A stretch of DNA of 63,883 bases, the filler included, from Hausera hauseri (Eukaryota), in assembly GCA_046269625.1 (NCBI GenBank). It is 11 parts of 11 records of this genome, joined end to end, with 100 filler letters (N's around TTAATTAATTAA, not from the genome) between each part and the next. Parts side by side here need not be neighbours in the genome. Positions count along the whole stretch, not along the records: positions 19,386 to 25,504 come from JBJURY010138094.1; 10 more parts are not named here. One strand, written 5' to 3'. The notes beneath the pieces are model-generated. The model saw only the letters and a program-made list of their open reading frames with translations. It made no database searches and was not told the DNA's origin. Positions 7,470 through 39,945 of this stretch are shown here, piece by piece (the stretch's first letter is position 1; each line of letters starts with the position of its first letter). The position numbers and the translations under genes are program-made.

Positions 7470-7596
7470 CAGCAGCCGGCCTTCATCTACCGGCACACAC
7501 CGACATCCACAGCAGCCGGCCTTCATCTACCGGCACACACCGACATCCACAGCAGCCAGCCTTCATCTGACAGGTCACACTGACATCCTCAGCAGA
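7470..7596 (+). repeat. Three tandem ~40-bp repeats in the 3' region of the Ngaro-like element
   Basis: CAGCAGCCGGCCTTCATCTACCGGCACACACCGACATCCA twice exactly, plus one diverged copy. Confidence 0.9.
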
Positions 7597-7686
7597 TAGT
7601 TTCCATCTCTAGCTTGCAGTTCCACTGCGCTCCTCCTGAAATCCCATATCCTTCACTCAGCCATAACTCGCGGCTTCGACTTAAAT

Positions 7687-14958: not shown

Positions 14959-17900
14959 TTGCACAAGGAACACTTAAACCAATTTAAGCGGTCGAAGAAA
15001 CAAATATTTATGGACAACAACAACAGCGGCAATAGCAGCAGCGTCATCCCCTCAACAACAACAACAACAACCAGTAAGAAATGTCAGGCCTCAACAAGTC
15101 TTGAGAGACTTAATCAGAAACAGTACCCAGCAACAGCAGCAGCAGCAGGAGGAACAGCATCAACAAGAAGAACAGGAGGCTAATATTCCCAATATTACAG
15201 TCAAGTACGACCTAAACATATCGTACGTGAACATGAAGTTGGACATGACGGCGAAAACAGCAATGCAATTGAAGAATGTACTTGCTCATATGCGTAACCA
15301 GTTGGAAATAGAGGTAGCCAATTTCCAACAACACCACTACAAAGTACAATATGATGCACTTGCAGAATTTGAAAATTTTGAAGGTGACAGGAAACAATGG
15401 TACCTGTCACATCGAGCCATACCGTATTGTGAAGATTCTATTGCCGACGTAGGCGAAAAGCTCGAGGAGAAAATTATCAACTACACCAAAAAGGGTAGTG
15501 GATGGCGAATTATACGAATTGTCAGTCTCGGCTTTATCATAACAAAGTCGAGTGATATGATATATTTGTCTGGACGATCATTCATACCGACACCTGCAGC
15601 TTTGAAGCAGTCTCTGGCGGTAGTGAATGTAAAAAATACCAACGATAAATACTGTTTTCTTTACAGTATTCTGGCGGTATTGAAATACGACGAAGTGGAC
15701 AGACATAGTGCATTTCATCCAAAACAATATCAGAAATATTTTTCCAAATTGGATTTCGATGAAAGCTGAATGCCAATGAAACTGAAATCCATTCCGGCTT
15801 TTGAATGACGTAATCCGACACTGACAATCAATGTGTTCCGGTACAATACAGTCGTAGAAATATCTGCGGATGAAGAAATTTACAAAAACCCACATGTAGA
15901 TATACTCTTTCGAAGTCGGAACCAAAATGGTCTCTCAGTAGTAAATTTGTTGCTACTGGAGCAAACAGATAAATTTCACTACGTGACAGTAACCAACTTG
16001 GACAGACTACTTAACATGGATCACCATCATTTTGTACAAAAGCGAATACAGTGTAAATAGTGTCCTGTATGTCTGCATGAATTCAGGTCGGAAACATCAT
16101 GGGAGAAACATGTGACTCTGTGCAGACAAAATTCATGGGGAAGCATAATGTATGTCATGCGCTTCAAAAAGGAACTCAGGTTCACAGGTTGGTCAAAAAC
16201 AGACAATCCGGCATATGTGATGTATGCCGATATTAAGGCAATTGTACCACGGCACAACGTATATGATCAAAAACACGTTCCAATCGTCGTTGGTATGTTG
16301 ATTGTCCCAATAAAAGCGGTCGGTCAGCCGCAATATTACACCTTTCACGGCTTGACATGTGTGCGTGATTTCCAGCAGCGTTTGGAAACGGCAGTAGAAA
16401 CGGAAATTGCACCGTGATATCGCAATAACAGCACAAAACCCCTGATTTGGACAGATGAAGATGAACGCCTGACGTTTGCAACCACCGATGAATGTTACCT
16501 GTGCCACCACAAAATATTACCGGAACGGCTCGTACCGGATCACAACTCTTTTACTGGTCGATACTTGGGAGCAGCATGCAACGCATGCAATTTGGCAAGA
16601 CGTGTGCGGTTATTCCTGCTGGTGATATTTCATAACTTCAGGGGTTATGATTGTCACTATATTCTGAAATGGGCCATAAACGGATTTCCGCACTGGGAGC
16701 TATCCTTAATCCCAACAACGATGGAGAAGTACCTGTCCCTATAGGCACGCATAAACCGGTTTCAGGTATGGTTTCTTAACTCATTGCTGTTCCCCAATGA
16801 GTCTATACCAAAGCTCGTAAATGCCTTGTACGATGTGCTGCTAACACTGATGCAGTTCCCCGCACATTGCACGCAGAAAAGGCATATTCCCATATGACTT
16901 TGCCGTGTAATATGAGCGACTCCGGACAACAGAGGATTTACCGCCGCGATGGACAGGTATTACGGAAGATGAATATCACAGAGCACAGGAATTTTGGACA
17001 GAGCTGGGTTGTAGAAACCTGTTGGACTACATGCTTCCGTATCTAAAGCTCGATATGTACCTATTAGCCGATGTGTTTCAGACATTTCGGACTAAAGCGT
17101 TGGAGGAAGATAGGTTGGAACCCCTTAACTTTTACTCAATACCGGGAATGAGTTGGACATAGGCACTAATGTCACTGGATCGGGACAGTGAGCTGCTACA
17201 AGACCCGGAAATGTACCGACTGTTTGACGTTGGCATTTGTCGCGGAATGACATTTGTCAACAAGCATCACGTAACCAGTGATGACGATGATACAACATCA
17301 ATGTTGTACATCGATATTAATAACCTGTACGGTTGGGCGCTTTCGCAACCCTTGCCGCACCGTTCATATGAATCGATAATGGACAAGCAAGAACTGGATA
17401 CATTGATGGACAATCTGCCAGCAGCAAACACGACAGAAAGCAGCTCAGTCGGCTACCTAATTGAAGTTGATCTCGTGGTACAGTATGAGCTGCATGTCGC
17501 TCTGGACAAATTATCCGTGGCATCAATCAGACAATGTCCACCCGGCGGCTCAAAAGTAAAGAAACGGTTCATGACGCATGAACCCAAATCGAATTACGTG
17601 GTTCATTGGCGCCTACTGCAGTTTTACATGCAGCTCGGTGTATGCGTCACACAGCTGCATCGTTCAATCCGCTTCAATCAGACGAATATATTCAAAGCGT
17701 ACATTGATAGAAATTCAGAGAAACGAACCGCAGCTCGGACAAAGTTTGAAAAGGGCTATTACAAGCTGAAAAACAATTCACTGTATGGGAAAACAGTAAG
17801 AGAATCTGAAGAAGCGGCTCAATGTGCGTCTGGAAAACAATGAAGAATGACTGGTTACGTACACCAGCAAGGCTGAGTTTAGGCGGTCAATGCACATTGC

Positions 17901-18556
17901 CGATGGATTGGTAGCGGTGCTGTTAAACCGAGAAGAAGTCGTACTAGACCGACCAAGCTACATTGGGCAAGTGGTATGGACCTAAGCAAGTTGCGAATGT
18001 ACCAGCTTCAGTATCGCTACTTGGCACGTTACCGGCAAATGTTAGACGACTGTGAGATCAGTATCGTTATCGATGACATAGGCAGCTTTTTCCTGGAGCT
18101 GAAAAACATCAATCGAGACCAGCTACTCCTGCAAATTATGGCAAATGGACTACTGGACACGTCCAACTACCCGCAGAACCATCACCTGTACAGCAGTGTG
18201 ATAATAAACAAAATCGGCTGCTTCAAGGACCAAATTGAAGGCCGGGTTCAATACATGGAATGGGTATTTTTGCGCCCAAAGTGCTACAGTCTTCTGACGG
18301 ACTGTGGGCCAAAAATGCGGGAAAAGGCATCCAGCTGAAACAAACGGAAATAAATCACAATGATTATCGCCGCGTCTATGATGGACAAGAAGAAGAAGAA
18401 GGAAAGGCTGTTGTATCTCAAACGACCATACGATAGATAGAGCACCAGCTGTATGCCATCACAAATAAAAAGTTTGCTTTGACATGCATCGATGACAAGC
18501 GAAACTGGGTGGGGCGGAATAAGAGTTTGGCGTGCAAACATTGGCGTTTGAAATAA
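14959..18556 (+). pseudogene. Near full-length Polinton pPolB, with many stops and frameshifts
   Basis: KGSGW, NDKYCFLYSILA, YADIKA, FHNFRGYD, YIDINNLYGWALSQPLP, YKLKNNSLYGKT, degenerate DTDS (DDIGS), FLRPKCY, DDKR. Confidence 0.93.
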
Positions 18557-19240: not shown

Positions 19241-19642
19241 TGTTTAAAAAAGACAAATGTGAACTGAAATTACATATCTTTATATNNNNNNNNNNNNNNN
19301 NNNNNNNNNNNNNNNNNNNNNNNNNNNNNTTAATTAATTAANNNNNNNNNNNNNNNNNNNNNNNNNNNNNNNNNNNNNNNNNNNNTTCCTCGACGATTCC
19401 TTTCAAACTGTTAGGTATCTTGTCTACTTCATTTATTTCGATTGATCTTTTGTTTTGTGATTTGATATGGATCTGCCGGTAGATGGCTTTTGAATTGGGG
19501 GTTATGATAGTCGCATTTTCCTGAAGGAATTCATCGATATCTGCATAAGTTCCGCCATTATACTTACCAATCTGAAATAAAAGAAAATAAGATTATTCTT
19601 AAGACAGATTCTTATTTCAATACGAAATATTTTCACTGTCTG

Positions 19643-19686
19643 ATGATAGAATAACCCGATCTGTAGTTGTCAGGTTATTTTATCGT
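19643..19686 (-). promoter_or_regulatory. Conserved 17-bp stem/10-nt loop hairpin after the polyprotein (also 29758-29801, 40017-40060, 51282-51325)
   Basis: Sense ATGATAAAATAACCTGA-caattacaga-TCAGGTTATTCTGTCAT; present in all four copies with mostly pairing-compatible changes. Confidence 0.8.
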
Positions 19687-19724: not shown

Positions 19725-20858
19725 TTATTTTTGCGGCGTTTGTTTACAGTTTTTGGAGGTCAAACAAAATGACGCTATTAATATTATCAAGACGAACGCT
19801 GACAATCCAATTACAGATAAAATAGGTAAAGCTGTCCAGTCGAACGGCTTTTGTGTCGTTATTTGTGTTGTAATTTCATTTTTTATCTTTTTAAACTCTG
19901 AGTAAACGATTTTCTTTAATGTACGTAATGTAATTGTTTGATTTCGTCTTTTTGCTGCATTGATTTGTATTATATATTCTGTTTGAGCCTTTAATGAATT
20001 ACATTCAGTCTGTTGCGTGTTTTTATGCAGTATTACGTTTTGTTTACTATGTAGTGTTCGACAACTTATCCCCACATCGTAACCCAATTTCTTGTCAACG
20101 AAAAATTTTATTTTATTCTATTTTAACACATATTTAATAGGGATGTTTTCTGGTTCTTTTTCGATTCTTTTACTCGTTGCAATGATTCTCGTGGTTGCGC
20201 TGGTTGTCGCGGTTTCGACTGGAATTTCCCAAATCTGATTCTCTAATCGATATCCTCTTAGATAGATACTCGGTTGGTTAGGTCTGACCTGATACAAATC
20301 AAACTGTATTTTGTAACTATATCCACGGGGTATTTTGAAACATGGATTTGAATTCCATCGACTGATACTACAATACTTTGTTGGTGGATTTGTTTTCTTG
20401 GATGGTATGAATTGTGTCGATATCTGGTAGGACTCAGTTAATGGGGTTTTAGTTTTAATCTGGATACAGGCATTTTTCAAATTTTTAGAAACCTCGACTA
20501 TATTCTCATCTAGAAGTCTTATTTGAGGATTAGTACTCTGGATTACATCGGTTAATTTTGTTTGATTAGAAGGATTCTGGTTTGGCATGGTTATCTCGAC
20601 TGGCGGTTGTATATCCGCTCAAATGGTTTCATCAGGATAATAGTACATAAGTATTACGTATCTGTAGGTTCGTCTGAAGTCTAACTCGCAGCATTTCCTA
20701 TAGATTCCATAATCAAATTCACAATCCTTTATTTTCTCGTTATTTTGATCAGTAAATTTTATCCGTATTTTCATATACGTTCTAGTTGCTTCATTAGTCT
20801 TGAACCAGATACATAGTCTCTTCCAATCTACATCGTAAGCTTTCATTGTTTTGAGGTT
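19725..20858 (-). pseudogene. FN3-like ectodomain plus TM, copy A (in frame with IN; point stops)
   Basis: ORFs 20619-20846, 20118-20588 and 19725-20087 share the pol frame; LKAQTEYIIQINA FN3 signature; TM LPILSVIGLSAFVLIILIASFCL. Confidence 0.75.
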
Positions 20859-22313
20859 TTATACGTCCTTTTGTCCTTCTTTAACTTGTTGTTCTTCCTT
20901 CGTTTTAGCTTCTCTTGCCTTTTTACTAATTCCATATATATCCGGTAAGCTAGATTCATCGTGCCACCATTGGGCTTTAGTGCTTGGAACGTAAGAGGCA
21001 ATTAATGATAATGCTAAGATTATCTGTACGTAGGATACCGGTCTATTGACTATAGTAGAGGCCTTTGTTTTCTTTTTATCTTGACTTTGTTTTAGACTCT
21101 GATCTTTATATCGTAAATTGTAATATTTATTTGGCCTTATTTCTGTTTTAACAACTCTTTGAATGGAGATTATCTCTTCTTTTCCGTTTTTATTAATATA
21201 TACGGTAGTTGGTGTGGTTCGAACAACTTCATAAGGTCCTCTTCCGGTGCGAGTAAGCTTTAGTGACGTACCTTTCTTTGCTACTGGATAGTGTACGTAA
21301 ACCCAATCTCTCTTTTCTAAATCATGAGGTTTGGCTTTCTTATCGTACTGTTTCTTAAACTGTTCTTGGTATTCGAGTGTTAGCGTTTTTGCTATATCCC
21401 AACACTTCTGTAACCTTGTTTGTAAAACTTCTGCAAAGTTTGGTTCTAAGTCTTCTGGGTTTGTTTGATACGGGGTCATTCCTAAGTCCGTAGGTAATAT
21501 CGCTTCGCGCCCGTACATCATGAAAAATGGTGTAAATCCCGTAGCTGGGTGTGGAGTTGTATTAATAGCAAATTGCGTTCCTTCTAAAAATTCATCCCAA
21601 TCCTTTTGATCCTTTGCAACCACTGTTGATAAGACTCGAATGACTGTTGCGTTCATACGTTCTACCATTCCGTTACATTGGGGATGATACGCGGTCGTAG
21701 TTAATAGTTCGATTTCAAAGATTTTAGTAATCTTATCAAATAATTCACTCGTAAAGTTTCTTCCTCGATCCGTCAAGATTTGATCAGGTGGTCCATATCT
21801 GCAAATAACTTTCCTTACTACTGCATCTGCTAACGTCTCTGCTTTTTGGTCGATTAAAGCTACTAATTCGACGAAGTGCGTTAGTCGGTCTACGCATGTT
21901 AAAATATACTTGTTATTTTTGTGAGTTGTAGGTAATGGTCCTACTATATCCATAGACATGGCCTGCATAGGCCTATCTGGTACATTGATTGGTTTTAATT
22001 CGGCTATATAATTTTTCACTTTCTTTTGTTTCGTGGCACAGACTTCACATGCATCCACCCAATTTTTCACATCGATATAGATGCTAGGCCAGTAATATTT
22101 ATTTAGTATTCTCTCCAATGTCTTTTTCCATGACATGTGTCCGGCTAGATAAGAATCGTGTTCCGCCATTAATACTTCTGTTCGTAGTCCTCTCGGAATG
22201 ACCACAAGTTTCCGTCCCTTTCGTTCGTAATACAAAATACTATCTTGGTTTGATGCATAGTATTTGTGTCCATGTCTTTGTAGATGCTTCTTCAACTGGC
22301 GTCCCTTTGGCAT
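20859..22313 (-). CDS. Polyprotein segment: integrase (HHCC, DDE, GPY/F) running into a hydrophobic signal sequence
   Basis: HDSYLAGH..CEVC, SMDIVGP, TDRGRNF, GMVERMN, RGPYEV, then VSYVQIILALSLIASYVPSTKA; same frame as 22512-25493. Confidence 0.93.
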   Translation of the reverse strand: MPKGRQLKKHLQRHGHKYYASNQDSILYYERKGRKLVVIPRGLRTEVLMAEHDSYLAGHMSWKKTLERILNKYYWPSIYIDVKNWVDACEVCATKQKKVKNYIAELKPINVPDRPMQAMSMDIVGPLPTTHKNNKYILTCVDRLTHFVELVALIDQKAETLADAVVRKVICRYGPPDQILTDRGRNFTSELFDKITKIFEIELLTTTAYHPQCNGMVERMNATVIRVLSTVVAKDQKDWDEFLEGTQFAINTTPHPATGFTPFFMMYGREAILPTDLGMTPYQTNPEDLEPNFAEVLQTRLQKCWDIAKTLTLEYQEQFKKQYDKKAKPHDLEKRDWVYVHYPVAKKGTSLKLTRTGRGPYEVVRTTPTTVYINKNGKEEIISIQRVVKTEIRPNKYYNLRYKDQSLKQSQDKKKTKASTIVNRPVSYVQIILALSLIASYVPSTKAQWWHDESSLPDIYGISKKAREAKTKEEQQVKEGQKDV

Positions 22314-22511
22314 TTTATTTTGTTAGGCAAACTTAAGTATTTGTTGAATAACTTTATCTTTGGCTTGTTCTGAAGATATTTTGATCGTTCTGTCTAATGT
22401 TAGGGTGCGTTGTCGTTCCACCAATTCTTCAAGTTGAGCTTTCTTCATTGTCGTAATAATGCTTGTTTTTGTCTTAAGCCTTGATAAAGCATCTGCATCG
22501 ATATGTTTACT

Positions 22512-25493
22512 TTAGGGCTTATATTGAAATTCGATATTATATCGTGAGATTTCTTCGATCCAGCGATTTAATCTGCATGTTGGGTTAATAGCTCGTCCCT
22601 TCAAGGTCGTGACAGCCTTGTGATCAGTGACCATAATAATTTTCTGTCCATAGACATAAACGTTAAAATATCTTAAGGCTTCTTTTACACCTAATTTTTC
22701 TAGTTCCGTAACTGAATAATTTTTCTCGGCCTTTTTGAGTGATCGTCCGCCATATGCGATCGGATGCTTTAATTCTTCATCCTCTTGTTTTTGGGCTAAC
22801 TCATAGCCAATTCCTTCTTTGCTTGCGTCTGTTTTAATTATAAACGTTAAGTTGAAATCGGGATATCTTAATACTGGTTCGCTTGTTAAAATTTTCTTCA
22901 TTTCATCAAATGCCCTTTGTTTGACATCGGTCCATTTCCATTTGATTCCCTTTTTTAACAATCGATATAATGGTGCATTGATTTTTGAATTGTCCGGCTC
23001 GTAGGTAGCGTAATATCCACATAATCCTAGCCAATGCCTTAATTCTTTCTGATTTTGAGGTTTCATGCAGTCCGATATTTTATTTAATAGGGATTTATCT
23101 GGTTTTGACCCTCCTTCTCCGACTATGTGTCCGAGATAAGATACGGCATTCTGCGCCCATTTGAATTTCTTAGGATTCAGTTTCAATCCTGCCTGTTCTA
23201 ATCGCATAAGGGTATCTTCGATATCCTTTAGATGTTCCTCTTCGGTTTTTGATGCTATCATTACATCGTCCAGGTAGGCAAATGCATGATCAAGTCCCAT
23301 TAACATTTTGTTCATCATCCTGGTGAATATAGCTGGGCCAGTTGTTATACCGAATGGCATGACATTAAATTCGTAAACTCCATCGTGTGTTTTGAACGCT
23401 GTTTTATATCGGTCATCTTCCTCAATTTCTACTTGCCAGTAACCGGATTGTAAGTCCAGTGTGGTGAACCATTTTGCTCCTGATAATCTATCCAGTGCTT
23501 CTTTTACAGACGGTAATGGAAACGAATCTTTCATCATCAGAGTGTTTAAGGCCCTATAATCTATACAAAATCGATGTTTGGTAGTACCTTTCTTTTTAAC
23601 CATCAGTATTGGCGAATACCATGATCGGTAGCTTGGTCGTATTATATCGGCTTTTAACATACGTTCTACTTCTTTAGTAATTTCAGGTCTCAGTGAATGA
23701 GGTGGCGGGTACCATTTAGGCATTTTCTGTTCTTCCAGATCAATTTCTTCATTGGAGCCAGGTTTCTTCCTTAATGGTATCGTTAATCTGAGGGCCTTTG
23801 CCCGGCCTATATCTTCTTCATTTTGGGCAATAATCGATTTGTATTTGCATAATAGTTCATAAAATTGACAATACACTTCTGGAGAAAATTTGGTTTCAAC
23901 ATGAGGTGGGAATTCGGCGTATTTGTACGGTTTTTCTTCGATTGTTATAGCTGACACCTTATAAGTGTGACCCAATGTCGTGTTAGCGTACAACCTTACA
24001 GAGGTTGGTGCGTTATTCACCAACCTAACGGGTACTCGTCCTGTCGTTACCCGTGTCAGAATGTTACTGAGGATAATATTTGGGTTTAGGTCTTCTTGTG
24101 GTTCAAAGTATACCGGTTGATCATCCTCTTCTCGTATTTGAGCATAAATTAACATCTCAGTTCGAGGTGGGATATTTTCGTCTACGGGAATCCATACTTC
24201 TCCCAATTTTCTTTCTTTCACGGTTTTGATCCCTCTTACTGGTCCGAGTTCCATCAACTTTCCGGTTTGTAAGTTTATTGCAATGTTAGGTAGTTGTTTC
24301 AATATATCGTAACCCAATACTACGTCGTCCGTTAGTTGATCCATTATGGCAAATTCATGCTGGAGGGTCTGACCCAATAAGTCAACTATAGGACTCCATT
24401 TAAATTTTGGCTTAGATTCCTGCCCGAAGGCTCCTATACTGCTTGGATCTGCCGAAGACGTTGGTTGTAACTGTTTTCGTAGTATCGGTGGTATTGATTC
24501 TAATTTGATGAAGGACTTCTCCGATCCTGTGTCCACTAAGGCATATACCTCCCAGTCTTCAATGGTAACTTTTGTAAAGGGTCTTCCTTCCACAACTGTC
24601 CCATAACAATTCGATACATCCTTGGGGCGTCTGATTGAAGAAATCTTATGTCCGTTAATCGTTATTTCTGGTGACGAAACAATATTCTCCGTTAGCTGTT
24701 TTAGTTCTCCGTTTGGATATAGATTATTGTTCACTATGCTACTTTCATTGTTTTTAATTAATGGTTCTTGAATTCTTGAGTTTGAAAACGATCTCGTTCC
24801 ATGAGTCTCCCAGATTGTCGATTTGGATTCTATATTACGAGGTATTCTTGACGAGTATATTATTCCATGATCATCTTCCGCTCGCCGTTGGTTAGCAATC
24901 TGCGTTTTCTTTAACACTCCGTACTGCTTTGTTCCTTCATAAGGGTCTTCAAAGTGAAAGGGATTCTGACAAAATGCTGATCTGTATGACATCGTAGAAA
25001 ACTTATCACAATCTTCGTATACCGGAGCTGTTGGCGGCATTATGGGCAATGGTGCTTTAATCACCGAATACATTTTGTGTCTATTTTGTTTAGGGAGGGC
25101 TTCTCCTCCCTTAGGCTCGTCATCATCTGAGTCATCTCTTCTAGTTATTATTTTCTTAGTTTTACGTTTCGATAGGAAGAAGGGTCTTGTTCGCCGCTTG
25201 TAATTGTGGTAGCCAACATGTCGTTCCACGTCGTTTTTCCATCGATTTTCTTCATAGGCTTTAAGCATTTTACCGAAAGGTGTGATAATTGCTCTTAAAA
25301 TTTTGCAAGAAAATCCTGTCAACGTGAATATTTCATATCCATTTATAATTGCTTGGATTACGGCCTTCACTAATTGTACCATAAAATAGATTGCTAAGAA
25401 TCCGGATGCAGCTTGTCCAAAAATCAAAAATCTTCCCCAAATTTTGTAGAGTATTTCCGTAGTTACTCGTTGATAGTGATTTACTCCTAACAA
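22512..25493 (-). CDS. pol: Polyprotein segment: glycoprotein TM/tail, aspartic protease, dUTPase-like spacer, reverse transcriptase, RNase H
   Basis: 993-aa open ORF: WGRFLIFGQAASGFLAIYF (TM), ALVDTGS (DTG 24525-24533), RFCIDYRALN, MPFG, YLDD (23265-23276), TDASKEGIG, TDHK. Confidence 0.95.
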   Translation of the reverse strand: MLGVNHYQRVTTEILYKIWGRFLIFGQAASGFLAIYFMVQLVKAVIQAIINGYEIFTLTGFSCKILRAIITPFGKMLKAYEENRWKNDVERHVGYHNYKRRTRPFFLSKRKTKKIITRRDDSDDDEPKGGEALPKQNRHKMYSVIKAPLPIMPPTAPVYEDCDKFSTMSYRSAFCQNPFHFEDPYEGTKQYGVLKKTQIANQRRAEDDHGIIYSSRIPRNIESKSTIWETHGTRSFSNSRIQEPLIKNNESSIVNNNLYPNGELKQLTENIVSSPEITINGHKISSIRRPKDVSNCYGTVVEGRPFTKVTIEDWEVYALVDTGSEKSFIKLESIPPILRKQLQPTSSADPSSIGAFGQESKPKFKWSPIVDLLGQTLQHEFAIMDQLTDDVVLGYDILKQLPNIAINLQTGKLMELGPVRGIKTVKERKLGEVWIPVDENIPPRTEMLIYAQIREEDDQPVYFEPQEDLNPNIILSNILTRVTTGRVPVRLVNNAPTSVRLYANTTLGHTYKVSAITIEEKPYKYAEFPPHVETKFSPEVYCQFYELLCKYKSIIAQNEEDIGRAKALRLTIPLRKKPGSNEEIDLEEQKMPKWYPPPHSLRPEITKEVERMLKADIIRPSYRSWYSPILMVKKKGTTKHRFCIDYRALNTLMMKDSFPLPSVKEALDRLSGAKWFTTLDLQSGYWQVEIEEDDRYKTAFKTHDGVYEFNVMPFGITTGPAIFTRMMNKMLMGLDHAFAYLDDVMIASKTEEEHLKDIEDTLMRLEQAGLKLNPKKFKWAQNAVSYLGHIVGEGGSKPDKSLLNKISDCMKPQNQKELRHWLGLCGYYATYEPDNSKINAPLYRLLKKGIKWKWTDVKQRAFDEMKKILTSEPVLRYPDFNLTFIIKTDASKEGIGYELAQKQEDEELKHPIAYGGRSLKKAEKNYSVTELEKLGVKEALRYFNVYVYGQKIIMVTDHKAVTTLKGRAINPTCRLNRWIEEISRYNIEFQYKP

Positions 25494-25604
25494 TGATTCC
25501 CATTNNNNNNNNNNNNNNNNNNNNNNNNNNNNNNNNNNNNNNNNNNNNTTAATTAATTAANNNNNNNNNNNNNNNNNNNNNNNNNNNNNNNNNNNNNNNN
25601 NNNN

Positions 25605-27050
25605 TAATTAGACGCTCAAAGTTCTTTATCCAAAAATAATGTTTCTTATCGCCATCATCTAGTAGGAGCAGATACCTATCATCTTCCAAATGAGCATCAC
25701 ATATTTCCAAGGGGTAGAATTTATTATCCTTATCCAATCCAAAGATATTGATGGACATGTTGTTGATGCAGCTGAACTTCTTGATTTCATCTAAGGATGG
25801 AGGGAAGGTGATACACTGAAAGTCGTAGTTGTGTTGAAGATCATTATATAATAAAACACGGTAAGCATGCTTTTGATCCGTTACCAGTTTTTATAGAATT
25901 GCATACATGAAAAACATGTTGCCATTATTATAGACATTAATGCAAGCATTTCTCTGCCGAATCCATTCCGGAAGCTGTATATATGAACTGCCTTGCATGG
26001 GCGAGTATCTGTGTACATATATAAGCAGTCTCTTGATGGTTTCCAGAACCCATCCACTCTTCTTATCCTGGCTCTCATCGTCTTCACGGATCAGCTTCGT
26101 ATGCTCTTAATGCAGCCATTCAGGTATATTTATGTTTTCCAATATGGGCCTATTTTGGTCTTGAAGGCCCTATTTGATTTTTCAGCATCGACATTGACGC
26201 ATGTGGCCTCAAGTTTCATACTAACCTTAAGGGCCTTGAGCTCAGTCATATAGTCCTGTAGGATTCCATCTGTTTCTTCCTTTGCATATTCCAGAAACTC
26301 CTTGATGGTTCTTTGTCCAGTTGCATCAATGACATGTTTGCGGACTTTATCATTTAATGCAGCAGCATCAACTCGTCTCTGTCTTTGGCTTTTTGGCGCA
26401 GCCGCTACGCCTGTTGAGCCTGAGACATCTGATAGGTCTGATGGGCGTTTTAATCCTGAATCTCTATGTATTGCTACAGGCTGTACTACTGCATGGTGTA
26501 TTGCAGGCTGTACTGCTGCATCTGGCTGTACTGTGGACTGCACTGCGGACTGTACTGCGGATTGTACTGCTGATTGTACTGTGAACAGTACTGCCGACTG
26601 TACTGCGGACTGTGCAACTAGCTTATGATCATTAAATATGATTATCTTGGACTTTGATGCGAAGTCAGTCAAATGATTCTTGTGACCTTCATAGAACTGT
26701 ATGTATTCCCCATCACATACAAGCTCACATCCTGGGCAAATATAATAGAGGATTCTATTGAATTTGTGGCCATAATAGCTCCTCATGGTATTGTGTCAAT
26801 TCTCAGGGTATATGTGCAATACACATATGAACTGCAGCTTTGGTTTTTCTTTGACACAAAAGACGTTATTGGCATATTGGTACTCAACATTTGTTTTTTC
26901 GACTTGGCGAAGGAAATCAAGGGCTATTTATGGACATTGTAAAATTCCTCGTACCCTATCCTACACACTACCTCACATGTAGGGCATATATAATACTGAA
27001 CCTTGTTGAACATATGCCCAAAGTATTTCATCATAATACTATGGTAATTT
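25605..27050 (-). pseudogene. N-terminal part of a second-family Polinton pPolB with duplicated CxxC..H zinc-finger-like modules
   Basis: YYICPGC and YYICPTC modules, KALKVSMKLEA..RAFKTK, KKSGW, GSSYIQLPEWI, SINIFGLD..YPL..LLLL..HYFWIKNFERLI. Confidence 0.85.
26490..26620 (-). repeat. 12-bp coding tandem repeat (AVQS)n inside pPolB
   Basis: AQSAVQSAVLFTVQSAVQSAVQSAVQSTVQPDAAVQP in ORF 26130-26786. Confidence 0.85.
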
Positions 27051-29130: not shown

Positions 29131-29859
29131 TTTCAGTGAAATTGACAGTAGCCAAGTGTGAAGCGAAACGCTGAGGTCCAAACAGCAACAATCTCAACCG
29201 GTACAAGAACAAAAACTCCACAATTATCATCCGATTCGTTTCAAATACCAAAACACAAACAAACCATTCCAATCAGCCGAAGTCGTTCAGCTAAAAGAGC
29301 AGACATCGACGTCGATAATCATCAGTTATGATTCGGCTGTCAGCATTTGCAACAACAGTCTTGAACTCGATCCGCCAATTGTCCGATCCGATTTCAGCAA
29401 TAACGAAATTATCAGATCACCGAACAGTAAATTAAACTCAACGACCATTTTTAACTGTACAACTCCATTAATCAATAATGACATATTTCCCCAATGATTG
29501 TCTTTTGACATCATCTTGCTTACTTCCTATGGTTATGATTGCATATTGTTCATGTACGGCTGTGCTACACAAACACACACGCGTTTATACACATACAATG
29601 TTTTATAGGTCTCGTTGAATTGCCTTTGTTTATGTACCANNNNNNNNNNNNNNNNNNNNNNNNNNNNNNNNNNNNNNNNNNNNTTAATTAATTAANNNNN
29701 NNNNNNNNNNNNNNNNNNNNNNNNNNNNNNNNNNNNNNNAAACATTTTCTCTGTCTGATGACAGGATAACCTGATCTGTAATTGTCAGGTTATGCTATCA
29801 TAAAGTCCGTCTCGGTCCCTTTTACCCGTTTATATCCTTTTCGATTTTTACAGCGTTTA

Positions 29860-31110
29860 TTACAATTTTTTTAAATGAGGAAAATCATCGCCATTAATGT
29901 GACAAGAACGAAAATTGACAAACTAAACAGCTGTTATCGCTAAATTGTTTGGCTCAATGGAACCCTTTGTGATAAACGTATTTTGAGTACTAAGATCTTT
30001 ATGCTGCATTACCTCAATTTTGTTGTGAAGAGTTCGTACTGTAAAAGTCTTAGGGTTTTTACCTTTTGCGGCAATTCGGATTATATAATTATGCTGTGGT
30101 CGTAATGATTTCATTCGGTTTCCTGACTATTCTTTTTTAGGATTATAATTTGATTGGTGTGCAGGGTGCGACATTCAATTTTGACGTCTTAATTTAATGT
30201 TTCTTCAGCGTAAGATAGAATTTTATTACTTTTTGCCAAAATCTTAACCGGTATGCTCCCTAGTTCTTTTTCGGGCATTTCATCTGAACTGACGATCGCA
30301 GTAGTGAGAGTGGTACTTGGAACAGTGGACGGTTTTCTCATAGTAATTTGAAACGGAAGCTTCCATATTCCGATTTTTGGGCGGTATCCTCGTAAATAAA
30401 TACTCGGTGCTTTAGGGTAAGTGTTGTACAGATCGAACTGTAATTGTTAGTTGTGTCCTAACTGTAATATACAGCACACAGTAAGCCGTCGTCGTGCGAT
30501 ATAACAATACGCCGGAATAGGAACCAAGGGGTTCAGTGGTATACATCGGACGGAAATTTGTCTGTCTCCTGGCAGTTTTATTTTGGTCTCAATTCAAATA
30601 CATAGGTTCTTTAAGTCTCTGGAAATCCTAATAATGTTATAATCTAAGAGCCTTTTAAATGGGTCAGTATTATGGATTATGGCATCCGTCTTGACTCGAT
30701 TCGTGTCATTTCGTTGAGGCATCCTTATCAGAAGTTCAGTAATTATATAGGCTTTAGCTCCGGGCTGATTATAATAGAAAATTTACAATCTGTATCGGTA
30801 TGTTCGTCCGAAATCCAATATACAACATTCCCTATGAGTTCCATACGGAGAATCGCATGTTTTCGTCGTGGATACAGTTACAAATATTATTTGAAATTTT
30901 ATACGACTCTGAATACGTTCACTTGCCTCAAACCATCACACGGTTTGCTCCAATCCATATCGTATACTCTATGTGACTGTAAGTTCTGGATATCCTTTTG
31001 TTATGCCGCATATTGTAGTTTTTCGGTTAGGGTTATTGACCTTGTCTTTGGTATATACCAAATGATTAACGATAGAGCGAGAACTAATTATACATACGAT
31101 ATTGGTCAAG
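29860..31110 (-). pseudogene. Signal + FN3-like ectodomain + TM, copy B
   Basis: PISYVxLVLALSLI signal, Cys pairs, LRPQHNYIIRIAA FN3 signature, hydrophobic end. Confidence 0.7.
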
Positions 31111-31149
31111 TCACTATCGACGACGTTTTCTTTTCTTTATTTGTATAGT

Positions 31150-34100
31150 CCAATTTTGCTTTGCTCGAACGCAAATTATAGCGTTTGTTTGATCTTATTT
31201 TCGTTTTAACTACTCTCTGGATTGATATGACCTCCTCCTTGCCATTTTTGTTGATATAAACTGTGTTTGGTGTGGTTTTGGTAACTTCGTAAGGTCCTCT
31301 GCCTGTTCTGGTAAGCTTAAGAGATGTGCCTTTCTTTGCCACTGAGTAATGTACGTAAACCCAATTTACTGATTCAAAGTCGTATGGTTTAGACTTCTTG
31401 CCATATTGCCCTTTATATTGATCCTCGTATTTGCTGGATAATTCCAGGGCTATTTCCAAACACTTGTGTAATCTCAATTGTAATACTTCAACAAAGTTTT
31501 GCTCTAAGTTTTCCGTTCTGGTTGTATATGGAATCAGTCCTAAATCTGTAGGTAATCCTCAATTTAAAAAACGGGGTAAATCCTGTTGCAGGATGTGGGG
31601 TAGTATTAATGGCAAACTGCGTACCTTCCAAAAATCGTCCCAATCCTTCTGGTCTTTTGCGACTACTGTCAATAAAATTCGTATAGCTGTCGCGTTTATT
31701 CTTTCAACCAGTCCGTTACATTGAAAATGATAAGCTGTGGTTGTTAGTCGCTTGATTTCAAAAATTTTGGTAATTTTTTCGAACAGTTCGCTCGTAAAGT
31801 TTCTCCTCGGTCTGTCAAAATTTGTTCCTGCGGCCAATATCTGCAAATAATTTTCCGGACTACTACTTCTGCCAGGGTCTCAGCCCTTTGGTCTATTAAT
31901 GCTATAAGCTCGACGAAATAAGTCAATCGGTCTATACATGTCAAAATATATTTATTGCTTTATGAGTCGTAGGTATCGGTCCTACAATATCCATAGACAT
32001 TGCTTACATTGGTCTGTCAAGCACGTTGATGGATTTAAGCTTGGTGATGTAGTTTTTTCACTTTTTTCTGTTTGGTTGCGTATACGTCACAAGCATTTAC
32101 CCAATTTCTCACGTCTATGTAAATGCTCGGCCAGTAATATTTATTTAATATTCTTTTCAATGACTTCTTCCACGACATGTGTCCGGCTAGATAGAGTCGT
32201 GTTCGGCCATTAGAACTTCCGCACGTAATCCTTTTGGTATGACGACTAATTTTCGCCCCTTTTGTTCGTAGTACAACACATTTTCTTGGTTCGAATCTCC
32301 TGCGACGCAGTATTTGTGACCATGTCGTCGTAGGTGTTTCCGTAACTAATGACCCTTTAATGTTTTGTTAGTATCAACGAACTCGATAATTTGTTATATA
32401 ACCTTGTTTTTTTCTGTTCGACAGTAATCTTCAATGCCTTATCCAGTGTGAGAGTCCGTTATCTTTCTACTAAGTCTTCGACGTGGGCTTTTCTCATTAC
32501 CGCAACCGCGCTTGTTTTAGTTTTAAGACTCGATAATGCATCGGCATCGACATGTTTATTTCCGGGCTTGTACTGGAATTAGATATTATAACATGAGATC
32601 TCCTCGATCAATCTGTTGAGTCTACAGGTTGGATTATTTGCGCTACCCTTCAAGGTCGTGACCGCCTTGTGATCAGTGACGATTACAATTTTCTGTACAT
32701 AAATATACACATTAAAATGTCTCATGGCGTCCTTCACCGCTAGCGTTTCCAACTCCGTTACAGTATAGTTCTTCTCGGCTTTCCTTAGAGAGCGCCCTCC
32801 ATATGCTATCGGGTGTTCTAACGCCTCGTCTTCTCGTTTCTGAGCTAGTTCATATCCGATGCCTTTCTTACTGGCATCCGTTTTGATTATGAACGGTAGG
32901 TTAAAGTCGGGATATCTTAAAACGGGTTCACTAGTTAGAATCTTCTACATTTTATCGAAAGCTTTCTGTTTGGCATCGGTCCATTTCCATTTGATCCCTT
33001 TTTTAAGCAAGCGGTACAAGGATGCGTTTATCTTTGAATTGTCTGGCACATAGGTAGTAATACCCACATAACCCCAACCAGTGTCTTAGTTCCTTTTGAT
33101 TCTGGGGTTTCATGCAGTCCGATATTTTATTTAATAATGATTTATCCGGCTTTGATCCTCCTCCTTCGACTATGTGTCCAATCTTATGAGTGTACCGTCA
33201 ATATCCTTTAAATGACCTTTGTCCGTTTTTGAAGCAATCATGACGTTATCTAAATAAGCGAACGCGTGTTCTAGTCCAATTAGCATCTTGTTCATCATGC
33301 GGATAAAGATGGCTGGTCCGGTAGTTATTCCAAATGCATAACATTAAATTCGTATATACCGTCGTGTGTCTTAAATGCAGTTTTATAACAGTCTTCTGCC
33401 TCTATCTCTACTTGCTAATATCCGGATTGTAAATCAAGTGTGGTGAACCATTTAGTTCCAGAAAATCTATCCAGAGCTTCCTTTACCCATGGTAACGGAA
33501 AGGAGTCCTTCATCATAAGTGTATTTAATGCTCGATAGTCGATACAAAATCGGTGCTTAGTGGTACCTTTCTTCATAACCATAAGGATAGGTAAATACTA
33601 AGATCTATAGCTTTGTCTGATTATGTCGGCCTTTAACATTCGTTCAACCTCCTCGGTTATCTCTGGCCTTAACGAGTGTGGATGGGGGGGTACCATTTCG
33701 GTATCTTCTGATCCTCTAAATCTATTTCATCGTTGGACCCAGGCTTTTTCTTAAGTGGGATCGTGAGTCTTAAGGTTTTAGCTGAGCCAATATCTTCTTT
33801 ATCTTTCTCAATGACTGAGCTATAACGACAAAGTAATTCGTAATCGGCAGTATGATTCTGGGGAAAATTTAGTTTCAACGTGGGGTGGAAACTCGGTACA
33901 TTTATAAGGTTTCTTTTCGATGGTGACTGATGATACTCTATACGTGTGTCCCAAAGTGGTATTGGCATATAGTTTGATCGGAGTGGGTGCATTATTCGCT
34001 ATCTTAATCGGTACGCACCCTCTTAATACTCTCGTTAAAACATTACTGAGTACGATGTTTGGATTAAGCGATTCCTTCGACTCAAAATACATTTAGGATC

Positions 34101-34570
34101 GTCATCTTGACGTATTTTAGCATATATTAATATTTCCGTTCTGGATGGTATGTTTTCATCCACGGGAATCCACACGTCTCGGAATTTTCTATCTTTAGTG
34201 GTTGCAACTCCTTTTATTGGGCCAAGTTCTGTCAATTTCCCTGCGTTGAAATCTATTGCTATGTTGGGTAGTTGTCTCAATAGACCGCACCCCAATACTA
34301 CATCATCCGTTAATTGTTCCATTATTGAAAATTCATAATGAAAAGATTGTCCCATTATAGGAATTTCTGGTCTCCACCGGAATTTGCTTTTAGACGATTG
34401 ACCGAAGGCTCCGACACTTCCTGGGTCTGTCGTGGGACGTGGATGTAATTGTTTCCGTAGAAATTGCGGTATTAAATCATACTTTATCAGTGCTATTTCG
34501 GATCCTGTATTTATTAGTGCGTAAACTTCCCAATCTTGAAAGTGAATTTTTGCGAACGGTCTACCTTAGA
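31150..34570 (-). pseudogene. pol: PR-RT-RNase H-IN of copy B, many stops and frameshifts
   Basis: ALINTGS, RFCIDYRALN, YLDN, TDASK, CIDRLT, QCNGLVER, RGPYEV; colinear with copy A. Confidence 0.9.
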
Positions 34571-35249
34571 TTACCGTGCCGTAATAACGTGGTGCTATTT
34601 GGGGGTGTCGTATCGTAGACGCCTTGTCACCGTTGACGGTAACTTTAATGGTTCCAATTGGCTGATCGATTAATTGTCTTAACTCTCCAATTAAGTATAG
34701 TTTGTTATTCATACCATTCGCTTTTTCCATTTCCTGTTTTCTAACTGGCGACTGGATTTCTTGGCTTCTGAGATTGTGTGTTTCAGGGCTTCCAGTAAAT
34801 GTTGACTGCCTTTCGTTTGGTGTAGGTATTCTAGGCGAATAAATAATACCGTGATCGGCGACTGCCGATCGACAATGTAGGGCAGACGTTCTTTCCGTTT
34901 CGTGGGTCTTACGCAATATCCCGTAGTGTTTTGTTCCTTTGTAAGGATCCTCTAGACTAAACGGCTTCCAATAGATCCCTGTCTGGCACGAAATCGTAGA
35001 TTGTTTCTCACAGTCTTCATATATAGGTGCCGTTGGCGGCAGTATTGGTAATGGTAATTTCATAACAGAGTAGTTTTTATGCATGTTCGACTTGGATATA
35101 ACGTTTCCTCTCTTAGGCTCGTCATCGTCAGAGTTATTTCTTCGTGTCTTATTATTTATGAAGTTGTGCCTGTAGTCGAATATGCGTCTTTTACGTTTTC
35201 GATTATGGTAGCAAACATGTCGTTCCACATCCGCTTTCCATCTACTCTC

Positions 35250-37076
35250 TTCATAAGCCTTTAAGAATTTACCGAGAGGTGTTATAATAGCCGTCAGAAT
35301 CTTGTACGAGAATTCTGTCAAAGTGAATATCTCGGATCCATTTATAATCGCTTGAATTATTGCTTTGACCAGCTGAATCAAGAAATAAATTGCTAGGAAT
35401 CCTGAAGCGGCTTGTTTGAACATCAGGAATCTTCCCCAAATTTTATGCAATCTTTCCGTATTTACTTTTTGGTTGTAGTTGACACCAAGCAATGATTCCC
35501 ATTTCGCTTGATAACGTGCGTCCTCTAGTATTGTATGCATCACTCTGTTTAATTCATGTGTGCGCTGACGGAGGAAAGCGAGGAATTGTTTGAACGTCTC
35601 TACTTCTTTCGGTCGGTAAATCCCTTTGCGGCGGTATCTTGAAATTTATTATCGGTTATTCCTTTTATTAAATTTGTTCCCGTTAATTTGATCGAAAACG
35701 TAATTATGCCGCCGTTTGGTAAACTTACCCAATCGGTTTTGCTACGTCTGAACATTGGTTCACCTAGGCTGGTCTTGCAGTCGCTCAGAATTGTCGGCTG
35801 AGTAGAGTTTGCCAACAGTACTCTAGTAATTGGTGTTACTAACCTTGGTACGTCATGGTATATTACTGGAAGTTCCTGTATACACCTCTTCTCTTTCACA
35901 TTAATAGGTACATCTTTCTCTTCACATTCATAGATCAGTAGGACTTCTCCGGTTACCCGTCCGAAAACGCCTCATTTTACTGGAATTATTGGTGATGCTA
36001 ATTCGGGGTTAGCATATATTAAAGCCAGTTTAGTCCGCATGACTTCCAAGTTCAATTTGCAGTCATATGTTATCATTGGGTGATATAACTCGGCTATTCC
36101 GGCTTGTCCTTTATAGTAGTCTTGAGCTTAAACGTCCTGGCGTTTATCTCCGTCTCAGCTACAAAGGATGCTTCATAGTTGGTGACGTACATTATGATAT
36201 CACATCTTGTGAGTACATCTTTCTTAACAAATTTCAATCCATATGCATCGGAAATCAGTATAATAGATGTGGACTGTTCGGCTACATCTTCTCGCGTTTT
36301 AGAGTTAGTTTTCTTGCTACCTATGTATCGCTTCCATGTCGTCTCATTAAACTTAAGTTATTTAATTCTGAGAAAATTGCAATCGGTCTTAGCTGGGTGT
36401 TTCCAAATTCCCACGGAGCTTCTAAAGGAGCAAGTACCATCCTGGATGTGGCACTTCTGGTTTTCTATGTAAAGTTTAGTAACGCTATGGAACATTACCT
36501 TTTGTAGGCGCATTTCGGTTTCGTAAAAATCTACCAGTACGATGTTCGACTTTAGCCCTTTTTCAGTATCGTATTCTGCGCCATTACAATGTCCGATGTG
36601 TATATCTAGTCTTCCAGCTGCCACTTTATATACTCTTATTATCTTTCTTGATCCATTTCCAATTCCATGCCATCCCATTTTAATCTTCCAGTCTCTCTAG
36701 CTTGCTTACAATGCTGACGTTCTAAGTTCATCGGAATTGGTGGGGTTGTTGGCTTGATTATCGATAAATGCCCATGCACCAATCCACAATGGAAAATACT
36801 GCGAGATCGTCGCAACATACATTCTTTTCCGTCTAATGTAACTAGTTCGCGTTGTTGGTACAGTACGTAATTTTTCTCTTTTATTTCTAGTTCATGTGGT
36901 CTCGCATCTTCACACATTTCTAACTCTATTAATGAGTATTTTTGGCCAAGTTTAAATTTGTCGCAGTCGTACACTGTAACTGCACCCATTTGTCTTATTA
37001 GCATTATTAAGGTTAAGAAGTTAATTAACCAGTTTCGCTCGTTTCCTCTATTATTTCCGGTTACTTTTCGTAACAA
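35250..37076 (-). pseudogene. Class III viral fusion glycoprotein (chuvirus glycoprotein / herpes gB-like)
   Basis: Signal WLINFLTLIMLIRQMGA, then VYDC..YSL..C, C..FHCG..H, C..GHCNG, GRVTGEVLLIYEC..RCIQELPV..VTPITRVL..C, and WGRF..ASGFLAIYFLIQLVKAIIQAIING TM. Confidence 0.82.
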
Positions 37077-38874
37077 GTCTTAAAATCTATTATTGCCAAG
37101 GAAGGGCTTATTTTGACGTTCTTCTTCTCTTTCAAATAATTTGGACCAGCTTACTTCTTGGGGTAGTTTCCTGGCAGCCTTCTTTACCAAGCTAGTGGTC
37201 TTATTAAATTCGCTTTCTCGGACCGGATTGGTTTTAACGGCCAAATATAGCAACACTTTTTTTAATTCCTTCACGGTGTTCTCTGCTATAATTTTTTCGA
37301 TTATCGTTTCATTGCTTAAGGTGCTTCTGGATAATTTACATCGAAAATTTTTTATAGCTTTGGCTGCATTAAATATAGCCTTCTCTCTCGTCTAGCATAT
37401 TGCCGTCGAGACTAGAGTGGTTTACTATACGCATCAATTTTTTCATGAGTTCTGTCAGTTCTTCGTCATCTGCACTGAAGGTCAGTATGGATATTTATCT
37501 CATTTCTCTGATTATATCTCCGTTATGGTCGATTTCTTCTCGTGTCTTCCGAGGCCTGCCGACAGGACGCTTCTGTTAGGTTAAAGTCAGTGCGGTATCA
37601 CTGGTTGGCACTAAATTCTTATCATATTGTTCCTTGTCCGCGTCTGTCTGCAAGTATTCAAAGTACATTTCTGCGTCTCGAACTCCTACAATTCGTCCTA
37701 TCCACTGTTCAGTCTTCGCCTTTCTGGTGGCCTCTTCTTTTGTTTCGTCGGTGTGAATTGTTACTACTATCCGGTTTGCTTCGTCTGAAATAATTCCAAC
37801 TTCTATTAGTAGTTCCATTTGGTCTAATATTCTTCTTTTAAAATAAAGTCTACAATTTGGCTCGTTTGTATGGCCATTACTTTTTAACCACAGTGCTACA
37901 TCCTTCACAAGGGAACGTTTAGTAAACTCGTGCTCCTTCTCGTCACCCAGTCAAACGTTATTCTTATTTTAATCGTTTCTTCGGGCCTTGTCTTTAAGAT
38001 TTTAGCGTATTCTTTGATTAAAATTTTTGGTGCAGTACTATAAATGGTACCTTCGCTGGCCAATTTAGTTAAGGTGGGAACTAACCACCTTAATTGATTT
38101 TCAGTAAGGTTTACACTGATTGACTTAATTAGATCCCTTTCAGTTTGTGCCGAGTCCAGAAGCATCTTCACACTAAATCTCTGATTTGGTGGACACGTCT
38201 CCGTTTCGTACAAGTGCACGGGAGTTTTCGAGTTTTCGGCGACTATCGCATTCATATACGCGTCCCTTTTGTTTTCGTTTTCGGATATTCCGAAATCAAT
38301 CTCGGGAGTTTCTAACGGCCGGACTAAGTTCGCTTCCTTCATTGATTCTCTTAGTTTCCGTAGTTTCTTTTGCATTACAACCATTTGTGTGGTTCGGAAA
38401 CAACGTCCGTTTCCGGAGTTTGGCGTAATACTGTTAGCAGTTGACATAATTCTTTGGCTGATATAAATCCTTGTTCTTGATAGTTAGTTAGCTTAGAAGC
38501 TACGTCGCTTTGCCATCTTTGCACAAATTGTGACTTGTCAGCCTTTTCCGCTTCTGTAAAAGCATACTTAGTTTTATAGACCTCGAGTTTTTTAGTTACT
38601 TTGTCTAATCTTACCGTTTTTTGTTGGGTTTTAATGCAAGTTTCTTCAACTTGTCGTATCTGTGGCAACAATTGTCTTATTTTTTCGTTATTAATTTCTG
38701 CCATTTCCACTATCAGCAGTGCTAATTCATACATCTCATTAATAATTTTTGAGTCTGGGTCTATCTCATCAAGCAATCTTTTTACAAACTTGGTCTATTC
38801 AAAATAAAGATGGTGGTCGTTCCTTATTTTAGTCAGTTCGGTCCGATACCTTTGATCTGTTCCGACCATTCTTT
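37077..38874 (-). pseudogene. Unknown N-terminal polyprotein region upstream of the glycoprotein (gag position)
   Basis: Chain of same-strand ORFs 38375-38776, 37905-38447, 37576-37908 and 37080-37274; the last is in frame with the glycoprotein across one TAA; no CCHC seen. Confidence 0.55.
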
Positions 38875-38973: not shown

Positions 38974-39945
38974 NGTTTCTATTTCTCTTACTCCGGCTAT
39001 ATATGTTATCGGTATGGCCAATTTCCTCATTATCCTCTCTATTTGATACCCCACTAAGACGTATCCATGGAGGCATTGCGTTACTTCTTGTTGTACTAGC
39101 TTAAAATCCTTTCCATGATTCAGATGTTCTCTCTTAATTCCAGTAATTTTTGCATGCGTTCTAAACACTTTTTGTCTTGGATTGATGGTTTTTGAATAGA
39201 CTTCAGTCCCACTTTCTTCTCGGACGGATATCTCGATTGGAATATAATTCCCTTCTTCTCCTTCCCCATAGTTTATTGCGATCATCCTGAGATTTCTCTC
39301 GTCAGCTACCAATCTATATGAATATAGGTGTGTGCCCTGTTCTTCTTTTGTAGGCCTTTGTCTAAATTCTAAAGGTGGCAATGTAGCGGGTATTGTTTCT
39401 TCTTCGGTTGTTTCGATCGTTCTTTTCACTGGTAAGGCAGCTACACGAAATTCCAATTTGTGATTTCTGAGGCTCCTACTGTTGAATACAAAGGTATTAA
39501 ACCGGCTCTGTCTTCCTTGGAATGAATCCCATTTTTGATCCTTCAGTCGATAGTAAATTTCCCCATCTGTGAAATGCACATGGATTTCTGTTCTTTATCT
39601 GATAGGTACTGAGCGATTGGTTTAAATGGGTATGCCCTAGCATCTTTGTCTTCCCTCCATGCATACAAATATACTGCTCTAGCCTCCTCGGTTGTCCCTT
39701 TTAGCCCATTCGGTATTTCGCCAACTTCCCCATATTGCACGAAGCTTTTCCCTTGTAATTCTGTGTTTATCTGCCTATAGACGGCCTTTGAATTCGGGAT
39801 CCGCACTATTACATAGTTCTGTAGGAATTCGTCGATACTAAGTCGACTGGTCATTTCCTCCGTGTCCATCCTACGTCGGCTCGGAACTTCCTTGGCGTCG
39901 ACGCTAATTCGGCTTGGTTCCATCTGAGTCTGAGTACTTACTAAT
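38974..39945 (-). pseudogene. Accessory ORF of copy C: unknown N-terminal domain plus REX4/ISG20-like DEDDh exonuclease fold
   Basis: ISVREESGTEVYSKTINP..THAKITGIKREHLNHGKDFKLVQQEVTQCLHGYVLVGY; one frameshift near 39580. Confidence 0.7.

Follow-up and report, generated by a model that had tools for sequence, protein, structure and literature searches.

How do envelope-carrying retrotransposons leave the cell? Their exit is an open question, and two short motifs in a retroelement of Hausera hauseri may bear on it. The stretch of DNA analyzed here (the window, 63,883 nt of assembly GCA_046269625.1) is made of 11 separate records chained by ten N-spacers. One retroelement family is present in four of these records, as copies A, B, C, and D, all on the minus strand. 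In copy A, the tail of an envelope glycoprotein (Env) runs in frame into Pol and carries a PTAP motif followed by an LYPx3L motif. Late domains normally lie in Gag or matrix proteins. An earlier note had likened this pair to p6 in HIV-1, the type 1 human immunodeficiency virus, and proposed budding through ESCRT, the endosomal sorting complexes needed for transport. The best overall explanation, towards which we lean slightly, is that these are ESCRT-recruiting motifs in the tail of a captured glycoprotein and not an equivalent of p6. The value lies in a family-wide pattern, and the window's own two motifs are moderate evidence only. A statistically strong, ordered PTAP and YPxL pair in the tails of natural fusion glycoproteins would move late-domain function to Env, and it provides short peptides that are directly testable.

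Two Motifs in the Env Tail of the Window Element

The window element belongs to the errantivirus-type Ty3/gypsy retrotransposons; it has captured a class III glycoprotein of chuvirus-like kind, which stands before pol and shares its reading frame. PF24664 (Monjiviricetes-type fusion glycoprotein) was matched on five pieces, four of which exceed the curated Pfam cut-off. The Pfam scan returned the Ty3/gypsy order of protease (PR), reverse transcriptase (RT), RNase H, and integrase (IN), and translation, Pfam, and tblastn placed env upstream of pol. A C-terminal motif visible in the integrase is presumably GPY-like. This env-before-pol layout is known, and the element is a further example of an already described type.

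Copies A and B, the env-bearing ones, are each incomplete or broken, and the motif region is covered by these two only. Copy A (record JBJURY010138094.1, 19386-25504, minus strand as for all features of the element) is cut by the spacer that begins at 25505. It is a single open frame from the record edge through the Env end, a 223-residue linker, and PR to RT and RNase H. Its Env part (25257..25502; PF24664, E 3.7e-14) holds the C-terminal end of a gB-type, chuvirus-like ectodomain, the membrane anchor (about 25344-25430 by hydropathy), and following helices, which come from a low-confidence model. The cytoplasmic tail, or Env-protease linker (24588..25256, 223 aa), is basic in its membrane-proximal part and leads in frame into the aspartyl protease (24291..24587; PF00077, E 1e-4, above the curated cut-off). 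Copy B (29740-38874, record edge at 38875) retains the entire Env, from signal-like stretch to membrane anchor (35262..37079), as decayed sequence split over several frames, with PF24664 on three pieces and further support from tblastn with fused relatives; stops and frame switches run throughout the copy.

Translation of both copies confirmed the motif coordinates of the earlier note; the motifs are in the Env-Pol frame and lie in a viral-type fusion glycoprotein, past its membrane anchor. PTAP lies at 25023..25034 in copy A, within PPTAPVYED, and at 35025..35036 in copy B, within PPTAPIYED. LYPNGEL (24702..24722, copy A) is an LYPx3L, ALIX-type by pattern or alternatively a protease cleavage site. 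The earlier note set LYLIGEL of copy B (34680..34700) beside it; this is an LY block without proline and is not YPXnL. Copy A therefore offers Tyr-Pro-Xn-Leu with n=3, and conservation of Tyr, Pro, and Leu across the copies was not found. The proline is required in the p9 motif of equine infectious anemia virus (EIAV, PMC8402826). PTAP is an exact P(T/S)AP in a tail whose cytosolic side is suggested by the fusion to Pol. This tail showed no confident fold, with FoldIndex near or below zero and a predicted local distance difference test (pLDDT) score <50 in a single-sequence AlphaFold model. The model, with an overall mean pLDDT of 42.5, was too poor for a fold search, and disorder around PTAP is only weakly supported.

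Shuffling the copy A tail 200,000 times produced P(T/S)AP in 0.4% of cases, LYPx(1-3)L in 0.24%, and one or another of three late-motif types in 12%. A six-frame scan of the window found P(T/S)AP three times, in copies A and B and at 986-997 in another record. Between A and B, three of the four PTAP codons changed synonymously, with zero residue replacements. In blocks delimited after the alignment had been seen, the ratio of nonsynonymous to synonymous differences (pN/pS) was 0.16 for 21 codons around PTAP and 0.17 for 12 codons around LY, the latter between flanks at 0.63 and 0.50; the whole tail gave 0.39 and PR 0.32, so that both blocks stand out as locally constrained. The linker had been described as otherwise divergent, but 111 of its 223 residues are identical between A and B (PR, 59/100). 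Because it is less divergent than claimed, two copies prove little. They lend modest support to PTAP and none to a conserved ALIX site. In the window lineage, PTAP appears to be the better-kept signal and the ALIX-type site degenerate.

Late-Domain-Type Motifs in Related Glycoprotein Tails

A profile of the A/B region was searched against 1.84 billion cluster representatives, giving 91 matches. After removal of one match without a glycoprotein part and 12 with tails <25 residues, 78 tails remained (set 1), which form 75 BLAST clusters. Set 1 was not selected by the motifs, because a tail-free profile also recovered all 90 anchored matches. YPxL occurred in 15/78 tails against a shuffle mean of 0.85, and P(T/S)AP in 8/78 against 0.44; none of 5000 shuffles reached either count. 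The 5,801 aa of tail contained 15 YPxL and 8 P(T/S)AP, compared with 3 and 0 in 23,615 aa of upstream parts. The YP pattern was first spotted by eye, but YPxL and P(T/S)AP are motifs known from textbooks, and an unbiased screen of the set 1 tails answers this concern: YPxL ranked first of 14,463 short patterns, and PSAP and PTAP were within the top 25. Reversed-motif controls were not enriched in set 1 (1 and 0; PA(T/S)P 0).

A second set was obtained with P0109, a query that has both motifs. The best 120 of 456 matches contributed 119 new proteins and 118 usable tails (set 2), and the motifs were fixed before the test. Within these best matches, YPxL was present in 76/118 tails against 2.6 expected and P(T/S)AP in 26/118 against 0.76; with one tail per cluster, the counts were 15/34 and 8/34. 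The named set 2 proteins are mostly ant and other hymenopteran. Among them, the glycoprotein of 'Hymenopteran chu-related virus OKIAV146' (P0201), which may be endogenous, is unfused and ends with both motifs. Many set 2 tails (P0117-P0231) end in a conserved 'Y-T-x-x-L-K' type stretch after YPxL, and others end exactly at YPxL.

Over both sets, P(T/S)AP preceded YPxL in 24/24 tails with both motifs, and the order in copy A is identical. Leu stood two residues after YP (n=1) at 91/124 YP sites. Glycoproteins that are not fused and have no protease after them carry the pair as well, so the motifs belong to the Env tail. Statistically, a P(T/S)AP-then-YPxL-type pair is shown to be common to the glycoprotein family, whether a protease follows or not. 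The refuting condition of the earlier note, motifs no better conserved than the flanking linker, did not apply at the family level, where both classes are over-represented in the same order; between A and B, the low pN/pS of the PTAP block stands beside 16 other 4-mers that are kept equally well. We regard the family-level motifs as very likely ESCRT ligands. The window PTAP is probably one instance of the family pattern, and there is a fair chance, somewhat above even, that it was functional. ALIX binding by the copy A LYPx3L is doubtful, because the family seldom has n=3 and the proline is missing from copy B.

Other motif types were tried on the same tails and rejected. PPxY was not enriched (2/78 vs 1.27 in set 1, 4/118 vs 3.07 in set 2). 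A generic YxxPhi endocytosis signal, counted without Pro, was not enriched either (28 vs 22.0 in set 1, reached by 174/3000 shuffles, and 35 vs 34.8 in set 2). A tyrosine-kinase-like site after PTAP, (I/V)Y(E/D), was not enriched (0/78 and 3/118); acidic-xx-(I/V)Y was enriched in set 2 only (9 vs 2.2). A word-index search with the Env end and tail scored 0/2153 candidates and gave no close tail relatives. A search for long proteins returned 21 Pol-like proteins, with PF24664 listed for none.

Env-Protease Fusion in Relatives

A protease motif lay <=400 residues from the anchor in 13/90 anchored set 1 relatives. Pfam recognized a protease in 11/12 scanned fused relatives (not P0044) and also in P0073, and P0022 and P0023 extend through RT and integrase. 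As read from these sequences, the env-pol fusion is therefore a design that relatives have conserved. In a quick tree whose 74 rows comprised both window copies, 54 set 1 proteins (of 78), and 18 set 2 proteins picked by hand, and which left 37/71 branches open, copies A and B fell together with 11 fused proteins and with two others that end before any protease; the Shimodaira-Hasegawa approximate likelihood ratio test (SH-aLRT) value was 95.

The 13 fused tails contained hydrophobic-YP in 8 and YPxL in 4. YP was located 30-56 residues before the catalytic Asp in 10/13 fused relatives, and the copy A LY motif has the same relative position as this YP motif. A zinc knuckle precedes Env in P0023, P0024, P0042, and P0044. 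In four fused relatives with Gag-side sequence, YPxL was present in 4/4 tails, and the Gag side held one YPxL, no P(T/S)AP, and no PPxY. Other features of the fused proteins were recorded. P0022, P0024, P0028, P0030, P0033, and P0042 have two or three aspartyl protease motifs per polyprotein, and copy A has one. In their N-terminal 150 aa, P0028 and P0029 share a small domain that precedes the Env signal; P0029 matches Bcl-2 weakly there (E 0.00096, below the cut-off). An AT-hook-like basic motif lies upstream of Env in copy B, at about 37545-37575 (-) (Pfam E 0.17), and a similar one precedes the Env signal in P0022 and P0030.

Proposed Role and Competing Explanations

With Pol hanging on the Env tail, this tail would face the cytosol and the particle interior; it must be cytosolic because Pol must be inside the particle. 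The P(T/S)AP and YPxL-type motifs would have come with the captured glycoprotein and would bring TSG101/ESCRT-I and ALIX to places where Env trimers gather. ESCRT recruited in this way may help to sever an enveloped particle or vesicle at its neck, which is Gag's job in retroviruses. Pol would be carried into the particle on the Env tail and then freed by its own protease. Budding and an extracellular phase are inferences; sorting to lysosomes or exosomes would fit these motifs too, and neither env-bearing copy is intact. PTAP and LYPXnL are reported to recruit TSG101 and ALIX (PMC2651531), and late domains are described as working independently of position (PMC8402826). The membrane glycoprotein NS3 of bluetongue virus relies on PSAP in budding (PMC7409164), and a region that binds ESCRT makes vesicles bud when it is placed on a spike tail (PMC10121106).

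A wider claim is tentative, and we hold it to be possible though short of even. The whole PF24664 family, in retroelements and chuviruses, may carry ordered TSG101 and ALIX tail late domains, such that the fusogen itself drives budding. If true, one captured gene would give an intracellular retrotransposon entry and exit together, and a tail fused between Env and Pol would also pull Pol into the particle. It could also explain the exit of viruses without a recognized matrix protein; to our knowledge, many chuviruses have none.

Several observations weigh against the ESCRT-recruiting reading. Neither motif is present in 59/78 set 1 tails. In the fused tails, P(T/S)AP is found in 1/13, a count that 93/3000 shuffles reach, and the tail of P0028, aligned up to the PTAP site, has Tyr at the position of the final Pro. 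Set 2 is a single related group; it does not represent many independent origins, because its proteins are related and the query bore both motifs, and what it shows is conservation inside one lineage whose tails otherwise vary. The spacing n=3 occurs alone in 4 tails across the two sets, which makes that of copy A atypical. Of the 220 4-mers in the linker, 17 are fully identical between A and B, PTAP among them; the 7-mer LY window is equalled or beaten by 72/216 windows, and Tyr-Pro in A is replaced by Tyr-Leu in B. The window is without the element's Gag, which may have late domains of its own. Finally, HIV-1 p6, which has both motifs, was reported to give no detectable budding when placed on a spike tail (PMC10121106).

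This p6 result would also suit a different role, in which the motifs bind ESCRT but direct Env, and the Pol tethered to it, to multivesicular bodies, either to be degraded or for an exosome-like hand-over. YPX3L is reported to send the receptor PAR1 to lysosomes via ALIX (PMC3341166), and n=3 is exactly the spacing of copy A; ZAM particles have been reported on endosome/exosome routes (PMC3383448). The fixed PTAP-then-YPxL order in 24/24 tails is instead the combination that viruses use for release. The two routes use common machinery and may coexist, but we consider such sorting unlikely and find release, rather than degradation, the moderately probable purpose. The LY block could also be the element's own protease site, freeing Pol from the Env tail, so that only PTAP, if anything, would be a late domain. 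Retroviral proteases cut aromatic-Pro and hydrophobic-hydrophobic bonds. The LY block is constrained (pN/pS 0.17) yet has exchanged its Pro, a pattern more fitting for a cleavage site than for an ALIX motif; a cut in the linker would be needed for Pol release, and the YP of most fused relatives lies shortly before the catalytic Asp. Such a site should accept Phe, however, and FPxL and LPxL were both absent from the 78 set 1 tails, as was FPxL from the 118 of set 2. YPxL is also enriched in set 1 tails without a protease behind (11/65 vs 0.6 expected), and the distance to Asp varies, with 62 residues in copy A. Cleavage at the LY block is somewhat unlikely in our view, and it can hold jointly with the PTAP part of the ESCRT-recruiting reading.

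Chance matches in a moderately conserved linker would make the family signal inapplicable to this element. The frequency of some late-type motif in shuffled tails (12%) and the 17 identical 4-mers are compatible with chance, as are the coverage of the linker by two copies only, the scarcity of P(T/S)AP in the element's own clade (1/13), and a window tail without alignment to relatives other than P0028. P(T/S)AP alone was rare in shuffles (0.4%) and has three synonymous changes with no replacement, and order and position agree with the family pattern; we judge chance to be an improbable explanation. The earlier comparison with p6 rested on motifs directly before the protease. In copy A, the catalytic Asp comes 62 residues after the LY-motif Tyr, and another 105 residues upstream of that Tyr lies PTAP. 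The motifs might still be the remnant of a p6-like Gag C-terminus, stranded beside the protease by an insertion of env between Gag and PR, as their position upstream of PR and the zinc knuckle before Env in four fused relatives would allow. This is largely refuted by the unfused tails, since stand-alone glycoproteins, P0201 among them, also finish with this pair and have no protease after it, and the analogy by position is not supported. HIV late motifs are moreover in the Gag frame, not the Pol frame, and we give a p6 origin very little credence.

Further Features of the Window

The remaining Pol frame of copy A (22515..24290; PF00078, PF17919, PF17917) includes RT at 23121-23600 and RNase H at 22539-22934. 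The integrase open reading frame (ORF, 20859..22322; PF17921, PF00665) lies in the frame of Env-Pol but is separated from it by stop codon(s), and it has a signal-like stretch at its end. Copy B has an in-frame stop before PR (34566-34568) and a decayed pol with many stops and frame switches (31037..34565). Its broken region upstream of Env (37080..38874) is probably the Gag-to-Env linker; it weakly matches the linker that precedes Env in relative P0023 (E 0.013 and 0.078). No capsid, zinc knuckle, or Gag Pfam match was found in this region, where the record ends, and an atlas search with one piece upstream of the copy B Env gave no usable match. Copies C (38975-43609) and D (48517-53644) complete the family. 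Self-BLAST of the window detected no terminal repeats, though the record spacers cut every copy.

A second predicted type I membrane protein follows the integrase at 19725-21000 (-), about 40250-41280, and 51521-52600, with a signal-like stretch, an ectodomain without a Pfam match, and a C-terminal hydrophobic anchor. P0022 and P0023 have a similar extension with two hydrophobic segments fused to integrase. Downstream of pol, a cargo ORF at 49632-50435 (-) and 38975-39594 (-) resembles an RNase T/DEDDh exonuclease (Pfam E 0.0077, below the cut-off; atlas score 0.90). A conserved cargo ORF without a Pfam match is present in copies A, C, and D (19386-19669 (-), 39175-40043 (-), and 50439-51308 (-)). 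A RING finger ORF (48743-49180 (-); PF13639, E 5.5e-10) lies at the far end of copy D and may be part of the element; a relative with 32% identity is in another record at 56240-56617 (+).

Other parts of the window bear unrelated sequences. Decayed pieces at 2304-3950 (-), 14978-18338 (+), and 25606-26795 (-) resemble what we take to be a Polinton/Maverick protein-primed DNA polymerase B. The region 4330-8368 (+) contains unrelated, presumably gypsy-like pol pieces and parts of what is presumably a DIRS-like element, in which an ORF at about 6820-7206 resembles a tyrosine recombinase. An ORF at 61701-62294 (-) resembles the end of what we assume to be an NAF1/Gar1-type H/ACA assembly factor and is probably a host gene piece.

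Comparison with Known Systems

Single continuous gag-env-pro-pol frames are reportedly found in the nematode endogenous retroviruses (ERVs) of Sacco et al. 2022. As cited in PMC13524379, these non-canonical ERVs are Metavirus elements that captured the glycoprotein of an RNA virus and have env and pol in flipped order. The GAG-ENV-POL errantiviruses with gB-type Env described by Chary and Hayashi (PMC13524379), known from nematodes, bryozoans, and flatworms, likewise combine a Ty3/gypsy Pol with a chuvirus-like Env and place env before pol; the window element differs from them in its extra ORFs after integrase. That study analyzes ectodomains, and its main text contains no mention of the terms late domain, cytoplasmic, fused, budding, or ESCRT. 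Anakin (PMC7642597, PMC10084718) is a long terminal repeat (LTR) retrotransposon with the same captured glycoprotein family, but on a BEL/Pao backbone. Troyka LTR retrotransposons were considered and set aside, as they are described as having neither envelope protein nor GPF/Y motif (PMC12440569), and the window element has Env.

In the literature searched, which left most subscription papers outside its coverage, no prior report of tail late domains in this glycoprotein family was found. Passages of PMC10084718 and PMC1592117 had nothing on them. Candidate late domains have been placed in other proteins (PMC6394706), and a 2012 review of Drosophila errantiviruses gave ESCRT use as not known (PMC3383448). 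The engineered EABR tails, which carry a region that binds ESCRT and ALIX, produce enveloped vesicles by recruiting TSG101 and ALIX from a glycoprotein tail; they are artificial and of high affinity, and p9 gave about tenfold less than the best construct and p6 no detectable budding (PMC10121106). Bluetongue virus NS3, a viral membrane glycoprotein, uses its PSAP to bring in TSG101 for budding (PMC7409164), but it is non-structural and not a fusogen, its PSAP is paired with PPRY, and it has no enzyme fusion. The retroviral late domains, PTAP and LYPXnL in HIV-1 p6 and YPXL in EIAV p9, belong to the same motif classes and have the same order (PMC8402826). They lie in Gag, whereas the putative late motifs of the window element lie in the Env tail and the Pol frame. 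Compared with these systems, late-domain-type motifs in the tails of this glycoprotein family appear to be an undescribed variant.

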